NCBI GenBank assembly: GCA_964344235.1
Contig: CAYFMJ010000003.1
Location: 31,508-95,507 of the forward strand
Direction of reading: 5' to 3'
DNA length: 64,000 nt
DNA from: an uncultured Methanosarcinales archaeon
GTDB taxonomy: Archaea; Nanobdellota; Nanobdellia; Woesearchaeales; GW2011-AR9
In this document: positions 16,348-62,315 of the stretch, piece by piece
How the letters are laid out: every line of letters begins with the position of its first letter
How positions within the stretch are numbered: the first letter of the stretch is position 1
Translations under genes and position numbers: made by a program
The notes under the pieces: model-generated
Told to the model about the DNA's origin: nothing
The model's database searches: none
The model's input: only the letters and a program-made list of their open reading frames with translations

Positions 16348-17508
16348 ATGGAGCGGGGTGAACTAACGCAGAAGTATTTCTTTGAAGTGTATGGTGAAGA
16401 TAGTAGAATCCCTATACGGTTCCACCATGGTCTAGACTCGGTTGTTTGGCATCCAGGAGATTATGAGGGAACTGAGGATGACAGACACAACCCCTGGAGT
16501 GATATTTATGAAGCGACGAATTTTGACGAGTTTGTGCACCTTGTGGTAGGTTCTTGGAATTTGCGTTCAGCATCAAGCATGACTGCGGTTCATACTCCAG
16601 ACCAAGTAACTAATATGGGACCATTTGCAGAATTGTTGCATAGTGAACCAGACTTAACTGATGTTGTAGCATACATTCTCAGGCATACCCCTGAGCCTTA
16701 TGGTGTTAGGCAAAAAGCCACGGAGGCAGGAAAGAAACTGAATCCCTACAGGCCAGATACATTGATAGAGCGTTTAACGGAGGTTGATGAGCATGCCGCA
16801 GAATTATTTATTGAGGCGCTAAAGCGGCCAACACCAGACTATTTTGAAGCAGATGACAGGGCGATCTTTGATCCGCATTACAGAGAATGTGGGAGGATGT
16901 ATGTTCCAGACAGAGATGGTGCTCACTTGGACATGATGTTTGGAAAGAGGGCCATCAGAACAGTGAAAGGGTTCCCACGTGACTTGTCAGTTGATTATGT
17001 TGAATTACCTTCTATTGCAGTGAAGAATCAAACAGGTTTTCGAGACACAGTGTTCCGTGTAGTAACCAAATTCCCTGGCCAATATACCATTCAAGTTCGG
17101 TTTCGAGAGACAAGTCATAAAGGAGGCACACACTATGGGGAGGGAAGAATTGAGCTGCTTTATGAGGAGAGAGTAAGCCCCCTTGTAAATCTACCCATGC
17201 GTGGCATGGCTCTTGATGATGACGAAGCGATCAGTGACCAAATGCAAGATACTGCCGGTTATTTTTTAAGAGAGCTAGAAAAAGATGCGAGAATTATAGT
17301 AAACGATGTGAGCTGCAAAACTACTGACAATGGAGCTATTGCTACTTTTGAAGTTAGAAAAAGAAGTGATGAGAAAGCCCAGGCAGAAACATACCCTTCT
17401 GCAGCACAATGCCGAAGAGATTTAGTTGAAGAAGCAACAGGATATTTCCCTGGATTAAAAGATCGACCAGATGTGGCACTTGCTGCGCTAAATGGGGAGC
17501 CATTATAA
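16348..17508 (+). CDS. Hypothetical protein
   Basis: 386-aa ORF preceded by a TTTAAA TATA-like box. Confidence 0.65.
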   Translation: MERGELTQKYFFEVYGEDSRIPIRFHHGLDSVVWHPGDYEGTEDDRHNPWSDIYEATNFDEFVHLVVGSWNLRSASSMTAVHTPDQVTNMGPFAELLHSEPDLTDVVAYILRHTPEPYGVRQKATEAGKKLNPYRPDTLIERLTEVDEHAAELFIEALKRPTPDYFEADDRAIFDPHYRECGRMYVPDRDGAHLDMMFGKRAIRTVKGFPRDLSVDYVELPSIAVKNQTGFRDTVFRVVTKFPGQYTIQVRFRETSHKGGTHYGEGRIELLYEERVSPLVNLPMRGMALDDDEAISDQMQDTAGYFLRELEKDARIIVNDVSCKTTDNGAIATFEVRKRSDEKAQAETYPSAAQCRRDLVEEATGYFPGLKDRPDVALAALNGEPL

Positions 17509-20355
17509 TTGTTTTAATGTAAGTTCTTTTATTTCATCCGGCCAGTCTTCGATAAATTCTCTATATTGTTTTAATTCCGTTTTCACTTTCTGTTTCAGCG
17601 AACCAGTTTCGATAAGTTTAATGAGTGCTTCTTTGACATAGACAGGGACTTTCTTAAGATTCCAGACTTGTAATTTCATTTTTTCTTTCGCCATGTCTTT
17701 CTGTTCATCCTGTTTCTTTTTTGTCTCTTCCCAGTATTGTTGGTAGGAAAATTCTTTTTCTTGCTTGATTTTCTTTTTTCCTTCTTTCAGATTTATCTTA
17801 GCTAAGACTTGCTGATGCATTCGTCGGAGGAATTCATGTTTGTCTTCGATTCTAATAACGTCGCTGTAACCAGAGGCGATTAAACCGAAAGCAAATGGAG
17901 AAGGCATCTCTGTTGAGGTTTGGACTATTTCAATCTGATTTTGATTGACTTTGTCAATAATCTCTTGTGCATGTTGGTAATCCATTAAGTCTTCAAGTAC
18001 TTCTCTTCTCGCTTCTTTGAGAATAGGGAAGTGGTTATCGATTCTCTTGACTGCGTTGAATAAAATTTTACTGCCTATTTGCATCCTGCCTGTTTTCTTT
18101 TGTCGTCCCATATAGTTTCGGAGGATCATTAGTGATCTCGCAGCACAGTGTCTGAAGCGTCTCTTGAGAACTTCACTACGTTCGATGGCTTCTTCGAGTA
18201 GTTCTCTTAGGTTTTCTTCTTTGAGGAGGTTGAACGCCCTAGGCGCGTTAAATGGTTTTTCTGCCGCCAAGTAAAATGCGTTATCGGAAATACCAACTTC
18301 AACATCGCGATGTTGGGAACGGCCAATGATGAATGCTAATGCTCGAGAGAGACAATCGTTAACTCTTCTGCCAAATAATGTATGGAAGATGACATAGGTT
18401 CTACCTCGGTCAACGTATGTTTCAATGACAATCTTTTTGTTTGAGGGAACGATGCTAAAGTTATATTGTTCATAGAAGTATTGATAGAGACTTTCTGCTG
18501 CTTTATTTCCGACATAGAGATATTCGTTAATGAATTCTTTAATTTGTTTCTTCGTGTGTTTATTTTTGAAGCGATCTTCCATCAAGTAACGGAAGCGGGA
18601 GATTTCTGTGGCGAGGTCAAAGGAGAGAGGTAGCATCTCTGAGAACCAGGAAGGGACAGTTGGTGGTCTGTTTACTGACGTGGAGACCTGCGCTGTCATA
18701 CCTCGGGAGAATTTAAACATGTAGACATTTCCTCCCAGAACGAAAACGTCACCTGGTTTTAATCTTTCCAGAAAACCCTCATCAATCATTCCCACAACTT
18801 GATCTTTGATCTTGACTTTCACATAGGATTCTTCAGGAATAGTTCCAATATTCGTCATGTAAATAATCCTCGCCATTTTTCCTCTTTTCCCGATTTGACC
18901 GGTTTCTTCATCGTACCAAATTCTAGCGAAGACATATCGTTCCTCTAAGCTCACGTAATAGCCTGAGAGGTATTTGATCGTTTCAAAGAAGTCGTGCCAT
19001 TCTAAGTTTTGATAGCAGTACGATTGTTTGACTAATTGGAAGAGTTCCTTGATGTGGATAATGTCGTTGATTGCTATGCCGTAAATATGTTGTGCTAAGA
19101 CGTCTAATGCGTTTTCAGGGATGTGCACTCTGTCGATTTTCTTTTCTATTGCCGATTTTAGGAGGAGGGAACATTCTACTAAGTCATCTCGGTCCATGAC
19201 GATGATTCGTGCTTTAACAGTGGAGTGTAATTGGTGGCCTGCTCGTCCAGCTCGTTGTAAGAATCGTGCAACTGATTTCGGTGAGCCTAAGCAGAGAACT
19301 AAATCAATGTATCCGATGTCTATACCAAGTTCTAAAGAAGTTGAGGAGACAACAACTTTAAGACTACCATCTCGTAAATCTTGTTCAGTTTTGAAACGGA
19401 CTTCTTTACTTAATGAACCGTGATGTGCTGCTATATTATTATGGTTGTAATGTTGTGGGAACATTTCTTTGAGGTTGTGGACGACTCTTTCGGTAGCAGC
19501 TCTAGTGTTGGTGAAGACAACAGTTGTTTTATGTTTTTGAATTTGTTTGTCAATTAATTCATACATCTTTTTGTGTTTGAGCATGTAATCAAGATCAACT
19601 AAACTTCTCACGGGTGAGAGAACTTTGAGATCCATGTCTTTGATAAATTGCACGTCAACAACGCCGCAGTTTCTATTTGCTCCTACTAAGTACTGGGCAA
19701 TTTTTTCTAGTGGTGCGATGGTAGCGGAGAGGCCTACTCTCGTTAATCCGGGTGAGACTCTTTGTAGCCGTTCCATTGTTAGCGAGAGGTGTGTGCCTCG
19801 TTTGTTTTCTGCTAGGGAGTGGATTTCATCTACTAAAAGCCATTGTGTGTCTTTGAGATGAAGTTTGAATTTAGGAGAGTTGATCATGATGGCTAATGAT
19901 TCAGGTGTGGTGATGAGAATGTGTGGTGGTTTCTTGAGCATCTTTTGCTTTTGGTATGCTGTTGTATCACCCGTTCTGACACCTACACGGATGTTAAGTG
20001 GTTTGCCGTTAAGTTCTTCTAGTTCTTTGAGTGGTTTGAGAAGGTTTTGTTCAATGTCGTAGTTAAGTGCTTTTAATGGGGAAACGTAGACGCAGTAGAC
20101 TTTGTCTTCTAACGCTAACTTCTTTGTTGAGTCAACAAGTTCGTTGAGGATTGCGAGGAAGGCTGTTAATGTTTTTCCTGAACCTGTTGGAGCGGAGATG
20201 AGGACGTTTTTTCTGTTATGGATTTCCATCACCCCGAAGAGTTGTGGTGGGGAGAAGGTTTTGAATTTGTTGAAGAACCATTTATTGATTAATGGATGTA
20301 GAATAGACTTAAGATGGAGTTCTTTGTACGGTTCAGTTAAATGTGTGATGGACAT
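17503..20355 (-). CDS. lhr: Lhr-core ATP-dependent helicase
   Basis: APTGSGKT, DEIH, SAT, HHGSL, LELGID, QRAGRAGH, GTIP, RRFRHCA; true start MSITH at 20355 (the track start lies inside a tRNA-like gene). Confidence 0.93.
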   Translation of the reverse strand: MSITHLTEPYKELHLKSILHPLINKWFFNKFKTFSPPQLFGVMEIHNRKNVLISAPTGSGKTLTAFLAILNELVDSTKKLALEDKVYCVYVSPLKALNYDIEQNLLKPLKELEELNGKPLNIRVGVRTGDTTAYQKQKMLKKPPHILITTPESLAIMINSPKFKLHLKDTQWLLVDEIHSLAENKRGTHLSLTMERLQRVSPGLTRVGLSATIAPLEKIAQYLVGANRNCGVVDVQFIKDMDLKVLSPVRSLVDLDYMLKHKKMYELIDKQIQKHKTTVVFTNTRAATERVVHNLKEMFPQHYNHNNIAAHHGSLSKEVRFKTEQDLRDGSLKVVVSSTSLELGIDIGYIDLVLCLGSPKSVARFLQRAGRAGHQLHSTVKARIIVMDRDDLVECSLLLKSAIEKKIDRVHIPENALDVLAQHIYGIAINDIIHIKELFQLVKQSYCYQNLEWHDFFETIKYLSGYYVSLEERYVFARIWYDEETGQIGKRGKMARIIYMTNIGTIPEESYVKVKIKDQVVGMIDEGFLERLKPGDVFVLGGNVYMFKFSRGMTAQVSTSVNRPPTVPSWFSEMLPLSFDLATEISRFRYLMEDRFKNKHTKKQIKEFINEYLYVGNKAAESLYQYFYEQYNFSIVPSNKKIVIETYVDRGRTYVIFHTLFGRRVNDCLSRALAFIIGRSQHRDVEVGISDNAFYLAAEKPFNAPRAFNLLKEENLRELLEEAIERSEVLKRRFRHCAARSLMILRNYMGRQKKTGRMQIGSKILFNAVKRIDNHFPILKEARREVLEDLMDYQHAQEIIDKVNQNQIEIVQTSTEMPSPFAFGLIASGYSDVIRIEDKHEFLRRMHQQVLAKINLKEGKKKIKQEKEFSYQQYWEETKKKQDEQKDMAKEKMKLQVWNLKKVPVYVKEALIKLIETGSLKQKVKTELKQYREFIEDWPDEIKELTLKQL

Positions 20356-20416
20356 GAGTAGAAAACATCTATCTCTTACTATTTTGTTGTGTTTTTTATA
20401 ATGATTGTGTTTACAG

Positions 20417-20520
20417 CGGCAGGGACGGGATTTCCGTGGTTGGCAATTCGAACCCGTGTGACGTGGGAACGTCAACCGATTATCAATCGGTTGCTTTTGG
20501 CCTTTCTTGGCCACTTCTTT
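20417..20520 (-). tRNA. Class II (Ser-shaped) tRNA-like gene, anticodon GAT, 16-nt intron at 59/60, unpaired acceptor 5' strand (possible pseudo-tRNA)
   Basis: D-arm TGGCCAAG..GGCC, anticodon arm ACCGA-TTGATAA-TCGGT, variable arm TGACGT-TCCC-ACGTCA, T-arm ACGGG-TTCGAA[intron]T-CCCGT, 3' strand CCCTGCC-G. Confidence 0.75.
20431..20446 (-). other. Bulge-helix-bulge tRNA intron in the T-loop
   Basis: TTCG pairs with intron CGGA, 3-nt bulges AA|T on both sides, TG/CA intron helix; removal restores TTCGAAT. Confidence 0.8.
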
Positions 20521-20789
20521 TTGTTGTGGAATTTGTTTATAAGAATTAGGGATGGTTGTCGAGTGGGGAGTGGGGCAGAATTATAGAAAGGAGTAACGAA
20601 AATTCAACCTTAACGACTAATTGATTTTTAGGGGGACTTAAGAAAAATATTGTTAATCAAAGGACCAGCACCTGTACATTTCTGGGTTAGATAGATTATG
20701 AATTCATCTTTCTGATCTTGGCAAGATTTTCCAAAAATCAGAGAATGGCACATTCAATGCCTGGCCCTATAGGGCCGATACCCATAATT

Positions 20790-58779: not shown

Positions 58780-58908
58780 ATTTTTGATCGTGAGCAGGTT
58801 TAATTTGTTTGGTATAGCTTCCGCTAGGTTTTCATAAAAAAAAGAAAACAAAGGCGAACAAAAGTTCACCAATGAGATGTAAATGAAAACCATATGTAAG
58901 GTAACACA

Positions 58909-61900
58909 AAGTATGAACGTTAGTAACCGCATGCTGAATCCCTCGTTACCTTGGAACTTACACACCGGTTCTATCAAGCCGCTCTTCTTGCGACGTTCTA
59001 AGGAATCTCTTTTCAAGGTACGCTTCGTGCTTAGATGCGTTCAGCACTTATCACTTATGGCGTAGCTGCCCGGCATGCCTTGTCAGACAACCGGTCGACC
59101 AGTGGCCACGAGCCTCCGTTCCTCTCGTACTAAGAGGTCCTTCCTTTCAGATTCCCAACACTTCCAGTAGATATCAAACAAACTGCCTCACAGCGTTCTG
59201 AACCCAGCTCACGATCCCTTTTAATGGGTGAACACCCCCACCCTTGGCAGCTTCTGCACCGCCAGGATAGGAAGAGCCGACATCGAAGTAGCAAACCGCG
59301 CCGTCGATATGAACTCTCGGGCGCGACAACTCAGTTATCCCCGGAGTAACTTTTCAGTCATTCACAGCCCTCATTAAGAAGGCTTGTGAGTTCGCTAAGC
59401 CACACTTTCGTGTTTGGAATTCGTTATGTTAGAATTCCAATCAGGCTGGCATTTGCCTTTGCACTCCACTTCGGATTTCTAAACCGAATGAGCCAACCTT
59501 TGGGCGCTATTGATATCCTTTCAACAGCGTGCCACCCCAGCCAAACTGTCCACCAACCGGTGTCCCTCAATTTAGAGGTAAGTGATATAGTTTCTAATAA
59601 GTGGTGTTACATTGACGCCTCAGTACTTCTCTGACGACAAGTACCTCAAACAGCTCCCACTTACGCTATATATTAAAAGCCACATCACAGCGACAGGCTA
59701 CAGTAAAGTTTCACGGGGTCTTCGCTTCCCACTGGAAGTCCCTGGCCTTTGCACCAGGACAGAGTATTCGGGAGATTCTACGTTGGGACAGTGGCGATCT
59801 CGTTATACCATTCATGCAGGCCGTCATTCAAACGGCAAGGCATTTCGCTCACGTCTGTTACTTTCACTCAGAAGAGTTACTGACCATTGGAATATGGCGG
59901 ATATACATTTCTGCATATCTCCTTACATCGCTGCAAGGATCGGACTATATCTTCATCTGTTGCCAGATGTTTGGCGTATAGTCTCTGAGGATTCTTCTTT
60001 AAGAAAGAAGTCTTTCCTGCTGATTGTCTCCACTTATTGATTTTCAGGGGTCGTTGCTTTGTTACCAAAACAATATCCTACAACAAGATACAGAGATTTT
60101 CCAGCATATAGCCAAATTTTTATCTCAGTTTTTTCGGTATCTGTTTAACAACCTGAGACTTAAGGCAACGAAGTGCTTACCTTAAGAGAGTTATAGTTAC
60201 TCCCGCCGTTTACCAGCTCTTCACCCCGTTGGAACGAGGCTTAAAGTACTGGCACTGGGCAGATATCACCTTCTATACACATCTTTACAGACTAGCAGAA
60301 AGTTTTGTTTTTGTTAAACAGTCGGACCACCTTTGTTACTGCGCCCTGGACTCGCACTCATGCGAATACGAATTCAGGGATCCCTTATACCGAAGGTACG
60401 GGACTAATTTGCCGAATTCCCTAACGTAGATTAAACTCACACATCTTAGGCTTCTCACCTAGGGGCACCAGTGCCGGTTCTGGGTACGGTTACTTCAGAT
60501 TTATTTCCATTCCCTTTTCAGGGGCTCCAGATACCAACCAAACGAACCATAGGTCCGCCATTCTACAATTTAATCATGTTCTCATCATTACGATACTCCC
60601 ATGATGTATCTGTATTAGCACTTCCGACAAGAAGTGTTGGTCTCTTCCAAAGCGTTAGAAATGGAACTTGCGTCGCCGCACATACTAAAGTAGTAGTGGA
60701 ATATTAACCACTTTCCCTTTCCCATTACTCCGTTAGGAGATTGGTTAGGACCGACTAACCCTTGGCTGATTGACATTGCCAAGGAACCCTTGCCCTTACG
60801 ATGGTACGGATTCTCACCGTACTAAGATCCTACTTTCACCAGGATATTCATTTCTTCCAGGTCCACGTCTCCTCACGGAAACGCTTCTGCCCTAGAAAAA
60901 CGCCCACCTATCCCCACTTTCGTGGTCTATGGTATCGGCGGTCAGCTTAGACCCGTCAATTTTCCGGGCCCACGACCTCAACAAGTAAGCTGTTACGCAC
61001 TTTTTAAAGGATGGCTGCTTCTAAGCCAACCTCCTTGCTGTCTAAGATCACGGACTCCGTTTACCCTTTATCACTTAGCTGACACTTAGGGGCCTTAACC
61101 ATAGTCTGGGTTGTTCCCCTCACGGAAATCAAGTTTACCCCAAGATCCCCTGTTTCCCAGAGTCTACAACGTTACAGCATTCGGAGTTGGACAGGAAACC
61201 GACAGATTTCTCCGCCTAAATCCCCTATCCGTAGCTCTACAACCGTAACCATCTCGTCTGAGACTTGACTAAGGTCAATTTCGGTAGGAACCTGCTATTG
61301 CCGAGCTCGATTGGCTTTTCACCCCTATTCCCAAGTCAGAAAAACACTTGCACGTAGAACTTCTTCAGGCCTCCACGACGTCTTACCATCGCTTCACCTT
61401 GCTCAGGAATAGATCGCCCGGTTTCAGGTCGTATCCCTGTGACTTATGGCACTTATCATACCATTCTCCTCGTAAACTGCGAGATTTTGCTTTCGCTTTG
61501 GCTCCCCTTTTACAGGTTAACCTCGCCACAGAAATACACTCCCTGGCACGTTATTCAAAACGCACGGTACAACTCCTAAGAGCAGTACCTCACTATCGCT
61601 ACTAGATTTCAGAGTCTTTGAACTCCCTATCAAGGGTTCTTTTCAACTTTCCCTCACGGTACTTGTATGCTATCGGTTTCGAAACGTGTTTAGTCTTAGA
61701 GGTTAATGCCCCCCATATTCCCACTCCATTTTCAAGGAGCAGTACTCCGGAGACTTCCTAGGACCAACGTATCTTACTTTACGGGACTATCACCCTGTAT
61801 CGTGTTGCTTTCCAGCAAACTTCAAGTCAATACTTTGGCCGTAATGGAAATCCATACACCACATCTCCATTACATTACTGTAACAGATTCAGTTTGGACT

Positions 61901-62132
61901 ATACCGCTTTCGTTCGCCACTACTCACGGCATCTCAATTGATTTCTTTTCCTGCAGGTACTAAGACGCTTCAATTCCCTGCGTTCCCCTACCTAAAAAGG
62001 TATAGAAGAGAGAAGTCTCATTCGGACATCTCTGGTTCAATGCCTACATGCGACTCGCCAGAGCATTTCGTTGCTTGTCACGTCCTTCATCGGCGTTTCG
62101 AACCTAGTCATCCATCTAGCAGCTTCCTAAGA
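58909..62132 (-). rRNA. rrl: 23S rRNA, archaeal; mature ends approximate
   Basis: Sarcin-ricin loop AGTACGAGAGGAAC, GGATAACTGAG, GTTCGCTACTTCGATGTCGGCTC, GAGTAACTATAAC, CGCCGATGAAGGACG on the minus strand. Confidence 0.97.
59850..60178 (-). ncRNA. Group I intron at LSU position 1931 (E. coli numbering), 329 nt, no ORF
   Basis: Inserted in CTTAAGGT^AGCGAAAT, ends in G; IGS GCCTTA; core P TATATGCTGGAAA, Q AATCAGCAGG, R TCAGAGACTA, S AAGATATAGTCC. Confidence 0.95.
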
Positions 62133-62315
62133 TGTGTTACCTTACATATGGTTCATTACTATGATGTGTTAACGTGGAGTTGAACTTCACTCCATCATAT
62201 TTCAACCGTCGTCACCGAGATTGCGAGTTCTCGATATCCGTTTGCTAATTTTTATTAGCGGTTGCGCCCCCTCACCTCGAAAGATTTGGGAACATTTGTG
62301 TGGACTTGTGTCCAA

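Follow-up and report, generated by a model that had tools for sequence, protein, structure and literature searches.

What defines the allo-tRNAs of bacteria is an acceptor/T-stem layout of 8/4 or 9/3 (Mukai et al. 2017, PMC5389517). They combine a Ser-like body, with a long variable arm and G73, with non-Ser anticodons, and active as well as inactive members have been associated with toxin-antitoxin systems (PMC5389517). In nematodes, nev-tRNAs are extra class II tRNA genes derived from tRNA-Leu, which are charged with leucine and whose anticodons, including that of Ile, belong to neither Leu nor Ser (Hamashima et al. 2012, PMC3333845). Split tRNA halves, for their part, join through complementary leaders that form a bulge-helix-bulge, and in permuted genes the 5' half lies downstream (PMC4033280).

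The tRNA-like element analyzed here is located within an archaeal stretch of 64,000 nucleotides (hereafter, the window), which carries an rRNA operon at its far end and belongs to a small DPANN genome of 1.19 Mb with 39% G+C, assembled in 37 contigs. Relatives carrying the neighbouring helicase gene are labelled Candidatus Woesearchaeota or Nanoarchaeota. At 20520..20417, the minus strand of the window reads like a class II tRNA that has G73, a loop with GAT and, in the T-loop, a 16-nt insert, the presence of which explains its length of 104 nt. The sequence features reported by the first-pass annotation, namely a long variable arm, G73, the GAT triplet, a 5' strand AAAGAAG unable to pair with CCCTGCC and a mismatched A23, were confirmed, and its TTATAAA box about 20 nt upstream was likewise found in place. 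The features of the locus and of its paralogs are compiled in Table 1.

Table 1. Features of the tRNA-like element, its surroundings in the window and the intact Ser-shaped genes of the same genome
Feature	Position	Strand	Remarks
General promoter upstream motif CCACTCGACAAC	20555..20566	(-)	TATA box ~12 nt later
TATA-like box TTATAAA	20536..20542	(-)	22 nt upstream of TGGCC
A-run AAAAAGAAG	20514..20522	(-)	includes AAAGAAG; oligo-T run on the + strand
Hairpin 1, TGGCC / 6-nt loop / GGCCA	20498..20513	(-)	piece-type counterpart of the D-arm
Hairpin 2, anticodon-like arm	20475..20491	(-)	stem ACCGA/TCGGT, loop TTGATAA, GAT at 20484-20482
Variable-arm hairpin GACGT/ACGTC	20459..20474	(-)	holds the junction at ~20464-20468
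T-arm ACGGG/CCCGT	20425..20457	(-)	16-nt T-loop insert at 20431-20446, common to paralogs
Acceptor 3' strand CCCTGCC and discriminator G73 (20417)	20417..20424	(-)	identical in two intact paralogs
8-nt trailer CTGTAAAC	20409..20416	(-)	conserved with paralogs
Proximal TATA and CACAACAAAA, Lhr core promoter	20382..20402	(-)	second copy of the direct repeat
Lhr-type helicase gene	17503..20355	(-)	same strand, start codon 54 nt downstream of the element
Intact paralog, GAT loop	C2:8020	minus	same T-loop insert and trailer, leader GTTTCAG
Intact paralog, GAT loop	C7:12253 (C7:12253-12357)	plus	same T-loop insert and trailer, leader GTTTCAG
Further class II G73 genes, GAT loops	C12:11488, C4:46177, C2:170419		
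Class II G73 gene, TAA loop	C6:25395		

ARAGORN did not call the element as a tRNA, and neither did Rfam at the gathering threshold or at E<=10. With a covariance model built from five intact paralogs of the same genome, the element scored 65.7 bits (E 1.6e-17), compared with 109-124 bits for the five training paralogs and 89.8 bits for a sixth, held-out member. The score was thus far above chance yet below those of the paralogs, and the element is therefore clearly defective.

The heptamer AAAGAAG (20520-20514) is unable to pair with CCCTGCC (20424-20418), which in both intact paralogs pairs with GGCAGGG, so that the 7-bp acceptor helix of a functional tRNA (positions 1-7/66-72) is lacking. 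In the cloverleaf register, the D-stem contains a C12/A23 mismatch, and the sequence prefers to form the TGGCC/GGCCA hairpin. The anticodon-like, variable and T stems are intact; the anticodon-like arm can alternatively be drawn as a 7-bp stem with a 3-nt loop. Folding of the tRNA-sense strand of the element gave z = -2.05. The 16-nt T-loop insert is presumed to be an intron; simple folding revealed no evident bulge-helix-bulge around it, and inserts in the T-loop are frequent among the tRNA genes of this genome.

Only nine tRNA genes genome-wide passed the Rfam cut-off. A scan tolerant of inserts recovered approximately 30, most of which are interrupted one to three times, T-loop included. 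Among them are six intact Ser-shaped (class II, G73) genes whose loops carry GAT or TAA. As to the normal Ser genes that the first-pass annotation had proposed to look for, intron-containing genes with the Ser anticodons UGA, GGA and, probably, GCU were recognized by inspection only. The Ser-shaped GAT and TAA genes are thus a family of extra Ser-shaped genes, the GAT members being putatively extra for Ile decoding as well. In a separate observation, the intact GAT member at C7:12253-12357 (+) is convergent with a multi-intron tRNA gene at C7:12520-12383 (-), about 25 nt apart, and its trailer region contains CACTTCTT, the complement of AAGAAGTG in the window element.

In general terms, a long variable arm and G73 suffice for the archaeal serylation enzyme. 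Both are present in the window copy, which lacks the paired acceptor end that a tRNA-Ser also has. In its presumed function, the parent family comes nearest to the allo-tRNAs and the nev-tRNAs. The family shares with bacterial allo-tRNAs the Ser-like body and the non-Ser anticodons (PMC5389517), and with nev-tRNAs the class II architecture, the anticodons (Ile included) that are neither Leu nor Ser and the status of extra genes (PMC3333845). It differs from the former in being archaeal, in its 7/5 layout and in its T-loop inserts, and from the latter in carrying G73, which is Ser-like with serylation only predicted, and in its upstream pieces, which the nematode genes do not have. The proposal of the first-pass annotation that the window copy is itself an allo-tRNA inserting Ser at Ile codons was not borne out: the paralogs align with a canonical 7-bp acceptor stem and a 5-bp T-stem rather than 8/4 or 9/3, and the window copy retains the 5-bp T-stem without any acceptor stem. 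In function, the intact paralogs may act as allo-tRNA-like inserters of Ser at Ile codons.

In all six intact members of this genome, the tRNA gene is accompanied by a short piece, located 45-60 nt upstream of tRNA position 1. Each piece is made up of an A-run, a pair of hairpins corresponding to a diverged D-arm and a diverged anticodon arm, and a 7-13-nt identical copy of a segment of the partner tRNA; in one piece subtype, the D-arm counterpart includes part of the acceptor end. The shared segment usually corresponds to the 5' half and loop of the partner's variable arm, and homology ends after it. It varies between modules and matches within each module, and in intact modules this variable-arm part closes the piece as a copy of 10-13 nt. 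The covariance model also found strong relatives in other genera of the family. Among those examined there, seven modules have an upstream piece, with GAT, TAA or GAA loops in the tRNA, the piece boundaries in these relatives coming from a rough automated extraction. In A-type pieces of three genera, the A-run abuts TGGCC, and none of the five has a 5' acceptor strand. The stem of hairpin 2 co-varies in the other A-type pieces, whose loop is not anticodon-like. In addition, leader and trailer of the tRNA form a helix that co-varies between modules (CAG/CTG, TGTG/CACA, GGG/CCC and AGTG/CACT) and that includes a single G-T pair when read in the tRNA sense; in this helix the trailer CTGTAAAC pairs with the leader GTTTCAG, which is missing from the window element. 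Such a module, in which a Ser-shaped tRNA with an Ile, Leu or Phe anticodon goes together with a partner-matched upstream piece, is apparently undescribed in Archaea.

Either strand of the piece is a candidate for the RNA made from it. Firstly, it could be the opposite strand, in which the A-run becomes a terminal oligo-T. The spacer of intact modules has a TATA about 20-24 nt from the piece end, placed suitably for this option, and for the pieces the more stable fold is that of the opposite strand in 13 out of 13 modules, while in the same comparison 12 out of 13 tRNA genes fold better on their own strand; part of this asymmetry could reflect base composition. Secondly, the piece could be transcribed in the tRNA sense, as a general promoter motif and a TATA precede both the C2 piece and the window element; here, a transcribed leader requires a start site upstream of the spacer TATA. 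The upstream motif, CCACTnGACAAC, often with a second CCACT before it, lies ~10-12 nt ahead of a TATA at 31 sites in the genome. These mostly precede protein genes, and one copy is that of the C2 piece, at C2:8171 (-). The same motif CCACTnGACAAC is also located ahead of tRNA genes in relatives.

Six class II G73 tRNA genes of relatives (L025, L029, L031, L033, L044 and L045) have TAA or GAA loops, introns in the anticodon loop, an intact acceptor stem and an A-run right before position 1, and have no upstream piece. The ancestral form of the pieces may have looked like these genes. We also considered the pieces as attachment-site remnants of an integrated element, and rejected this idea, given that no family member in this genome has a recombinase homolog nearby. 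In one relative (L018, G042:C82), a 298-aa tyrosine-recombinase-like ORF with LLGHTSIDTTMVYLH at its C-terminus stops 6 nt short of the A-run of the module's piece.

Comparison with these modules accounted for the anomalous 5' part of the window copy. Aligned with the two intact A-type paralogs, the element is homologous only from position 8 on, through the 3' end and the trailer, and BLAST against its own genome returned two separate matches to the C2 module, one to the piece (C2:8072-8128, 84%) and one to the tRNA. Over one span, the 5' part is 82-83% identical to pieces vs. 67-68% to tRNA 5' parts; over a second span it is 84.5-85.7% identical to the pieces of C2 and C7, whose boundaries it shares. 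Hairpin 1 is nearly the same in the C2 and C7 pieces, whereas the intact tRNAs have a different D-arm. For the 3' part, identity to the two intact paralogs reaches 95.6-95.7%. The window copy accordingly contains a piece that runs straight into a tRNA 3' half. Absent are the TATA-bearing spacer, the leader and positions 1-47 of the tRNA, and the two parts meet within the variable arm, right at the direct repeat common to piece and tRNA. On these alignments, the 5' part reads as an upstream piece fused to a genuine tRNA 3' half, and not as a mutated tRNA half. Since five out of five A-type pieces lack a 5' acceptor strand, AAAGAAG is the A-run of the piece rather than a mutated acceptor strand.

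We therefore regard the window copy as, most probably, the collapsed remnant of a third A-type module that arose by a deletion between direct repeats. Piece and tRNA of an intact module share a short segment in direct orientation, and a deletion between its two copies would take out the leader, positions 1-47 of the tRNA and the spacer together with the TATA in it. The product would have the piece joined directly to the tRNA 3' half, with one repeat copy kept, and would be left without the 5' acceptor strand and without the leader that pairs with the trailer, and hence without an acceptor helix. This helix is required for the end processing, CCA addition and charging of tRNAs. With neither the strand nor the leader, it cannot form and the copy is dead as a tRNA; the window copy almost certainly cannot function as one. 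That the event was a deletion, and the fused form not the ancestral state, is the parsimonious direction, and we infer that the window copy has no remaining function. The suggestion of a pseudo-tRNA in the first-pass annotation is thus the one favoured by the evidence, with the correction that the 5' part is a fused upstream piece. The arrangement resembles deletions between short direct repeats by replication slippage or illegitimate recombination, in that 10-13-nt repeats bound the missing segment and one copy is kept, and departs from them in that the repeats are a built-in, co-varying feature of the gene module. Because the repeats are built into the module, its collapse is a recurrent and predictable way for it to die.

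tRNA pseudogenes are common, and an ordinary one, in which the 5' acceptor strand and D-arm of a complete paralog mutated without recombination, would need only four changes from GGCAGGG to the observed heptamer, all of them to A. Such an origin appears quite improbable, as the whole 5' part, including the A-run and TGGCC/GGCCA, is nearer to pieces than to tRNA 5' parts, the boundary between A-run and TGGCC is common to pieces in three genera, the upstream region is unrelated to those of the intact genes and the remaining element is undecayed. Regarding this last point, identity of the 3' part to either intact paralog is no lower than that between the paralogs themselves (~95.6%), the piece part has diverged no more than intact pieces have from one another, and all four hairpins are perfect. 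The absence of excess decay fits a recent event and fits continued constraint as well.

A 3' piece of a split or permuted tRNA whose 5' strand is encoded separately would also leave CCCTGCC without a partner in place. The element has in common with split, tri-split and permuted archaeal genes a tRNA part with a promoter-like box, here a TATA box of its own at a suitable distance, and a lineage with disrupted tRNA genes, highly fragmented ones being present in archaea of this general kind; both gene types are known in Archaea (PMC4033280). What sets it apart is that neither a partner nor a bulge-helix-bulge motif was found here. No heptamer able to pair with CCCTGCC occurs within 300 nt upstream or 600 nt downstream, the latter region being the Lhr promoter and coding sequence, and no permuted layout with the 5' half downstream of the 3' half was detected within the same 600 nt. 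For 240 candidate 5' strands in the genome, complementarity of the following sequence to the leader of the element did not exceed 10 nt and was AT-rich. The leader itself is a short A-run, unlike the complementary leaders of known split halves. The first-pass annotation had envisaged a GGCAGGG-bearing 5' piece acting in trans; this was not supported, as GGCAGGG was found in a tRNA context solely where the two intact paralogs begin, both of them complete genes. We thus give a split or permuted gene very little credence.

It is similarly hard to credit that the fusion is an artefact of assembly, i.e., a collapse or chimeric join at a repeated tRNA sequence. The 3' 45 nt are near-identical in three loci and the genome assembly consists of 37 contigs, which would favour such an error. 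Nevertheless, several positions in each half distinguish the element from either paralog, it is situated midway along a long contig and its flanks are unique, and the exact repeat that a collapse would require measures only ~11-13 nt. Moreover, an independent fusion is present in another assembly.

That second fusion was found in a relative from another genus, G052 (L166, G052:C3:37476-37606), where an A-run and a piece-type 5' end are followed by the body of a GAT tRNA, again with the acceptor 3' strand unpaired. The first 25 nt are 96% identical to the piece of the module L019, and the remainder is 87.5% identical to the L019 tRNA. The junction lies in the D-arm, with a 10-nt overlap, as for deletions between short direct repeats, and ~95 nt are missing. 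Its host locus, which precedes a conserved gene, could be followed across three species: it holds an intact module in G118 (L020, G118:C11), the fusion in G052 and nothing in G051, the sister species of G052 (empty state L205, G051:C7:55867-55903). Module collapse has occurred at least twice independently. Across 114 genomes, searches restricted to the family counted one A-type fusion vs. four intact A-type modules, plus one clear fusion of the other subtype. Neither the fused form nor its position is conserved.

We also compared the position of the window copy, upstream of the Lhr-type helicase gene, with that of the same gene elsewhere. Relatives share the helicase (75-83% identity), the proximal TATA and a conserved 5' UTR, and the gene on the other side of the element is not syntenic in them. 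Among 109 Lhr loci of other species, nothing comparable was found upstream of the gene beyond three isolated matches: a weak class II match directly upstream (26 bits), one ~0.9 kb away (46.7 bits) and a marginal one (14 bits). Conserved synteny of the element with Lhr was consequently not found, and no conserved ortholog of the element was seen upstream of Lhr at these loci. An operator mimicking a tRNA, controlling a downstream synthetase gene, was discarded on the identity of the downstream gene, which encodes the helicase.

An imperfect direct repeat flanks the element. Its first copy lies upstream, at ~20519-20548, and 23 of the 29 aligned positions match the second copy in the Lhr core promoter. 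This score was reached by 3 of 2000 shuffles and was the best among 31 promoters of the same class, one unrelated member of which scores almost as high. Such a repeat would fit a secondary insertion into the Lhr promoter and, given the score of that unrelated promoter, is no more than suggestive of one.

Two further observations concern this gene. The helicase frame is open for 53 codons upstream of the ATG, through the element and up to a GTG at 20514 (20355-20514 (-)), and an ORF caller would thus give a helicase of 1003 aa; relatives begin at the conserved ATG. A AGATGTTTTCTA-like element of the 5' UTR (~20356-20372 (-)), right before the Lhr start codon, recurs in many genera (Lhr loci L174-L202). 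The intergenic DNA around it is not conserved across genera.

As it stands behind a bona fide general promoter motif and a TATA, the element may be transcribed. It could then still be a functional non-coding RNA, made from either strand. On the + strand, this would be a 5'-extended version of the module's small RNA, running from the Lhr TATA region to the oligo-T run, with ~95% complementarity to the two intact GAT tRNA precursors along their 3' half and its insert; on the minus strand, a tRNA-like decoy or the 5' leader of the Lhr transcript, started from the upstream general promoter. In line with this are the perfect hairpins and the lack of excess decay, the promoter motif and TATA in the tRNA sense, the TATA-rich DNA on the other side with the oligo-T run at the far end, and the strand preferences of pieces (13/13) and tRNA genes (12/13). 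However, the spacer TATA of intact modules is deleted here, the fused A-type architecture occurs in 1 of 114 genomes and is not conserved, nothing similar lies upstream of Lhr elsewhere, bar the isolated matches among 109 loci, and the folding asymmetry may owe something to composition. We consider a retained RNA function rather unlikely, though deserving of some weight.

It is also unlikely, in our estimation, that the fused copy was kept as a derivative in its own right, either as a trans-acting antisense RNA from the + strand or as the outcome of a collapse that serves as the normal off-switch of the module. In the antisense version, an RNA extending from near the Lhr TATA to the oligo-T run would combine the small-RNA part with ~35 nt of antisense, which would cover the T-arm, the insert and the acceptor 3' strand of unspliced precursors of the two GAT tRNAs. 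In the off-switch version, a deletion between direct repeats would be a safe, one-step silencing of a potentially miscoding tRNA together with its partner, and the built-in repeat would be a designed weak point of the module.

As a collapsed module, the element alone is an ordinary tRNA gene remnant: like others, it is confined to one lineage, escapes standard finders and has a partial cloverleaf without an acceptor helix, and unlike them, its 5' half is replaced by a structured piece instead of random flank, with no decay of sequence. Its value lies in the evidence that it provides on the parent module and its pathway of decay. The series of empty, fused and intact states is natural material for asking if the module is selfish, regulated or harmful, and annotators obtain a concrete reason why "tRNAs with unpaired acceptor stems" turn up in DPANN genomes.

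Elsewhere in the window, the archaeal 23S rRNA gene (58901-62140) is about 250 nt longer than the model, and a match to a group I intron lies within this LSU rRNA gene at 59921-60159 (-) (Rfam, 85.6 bits, E 2e-20).
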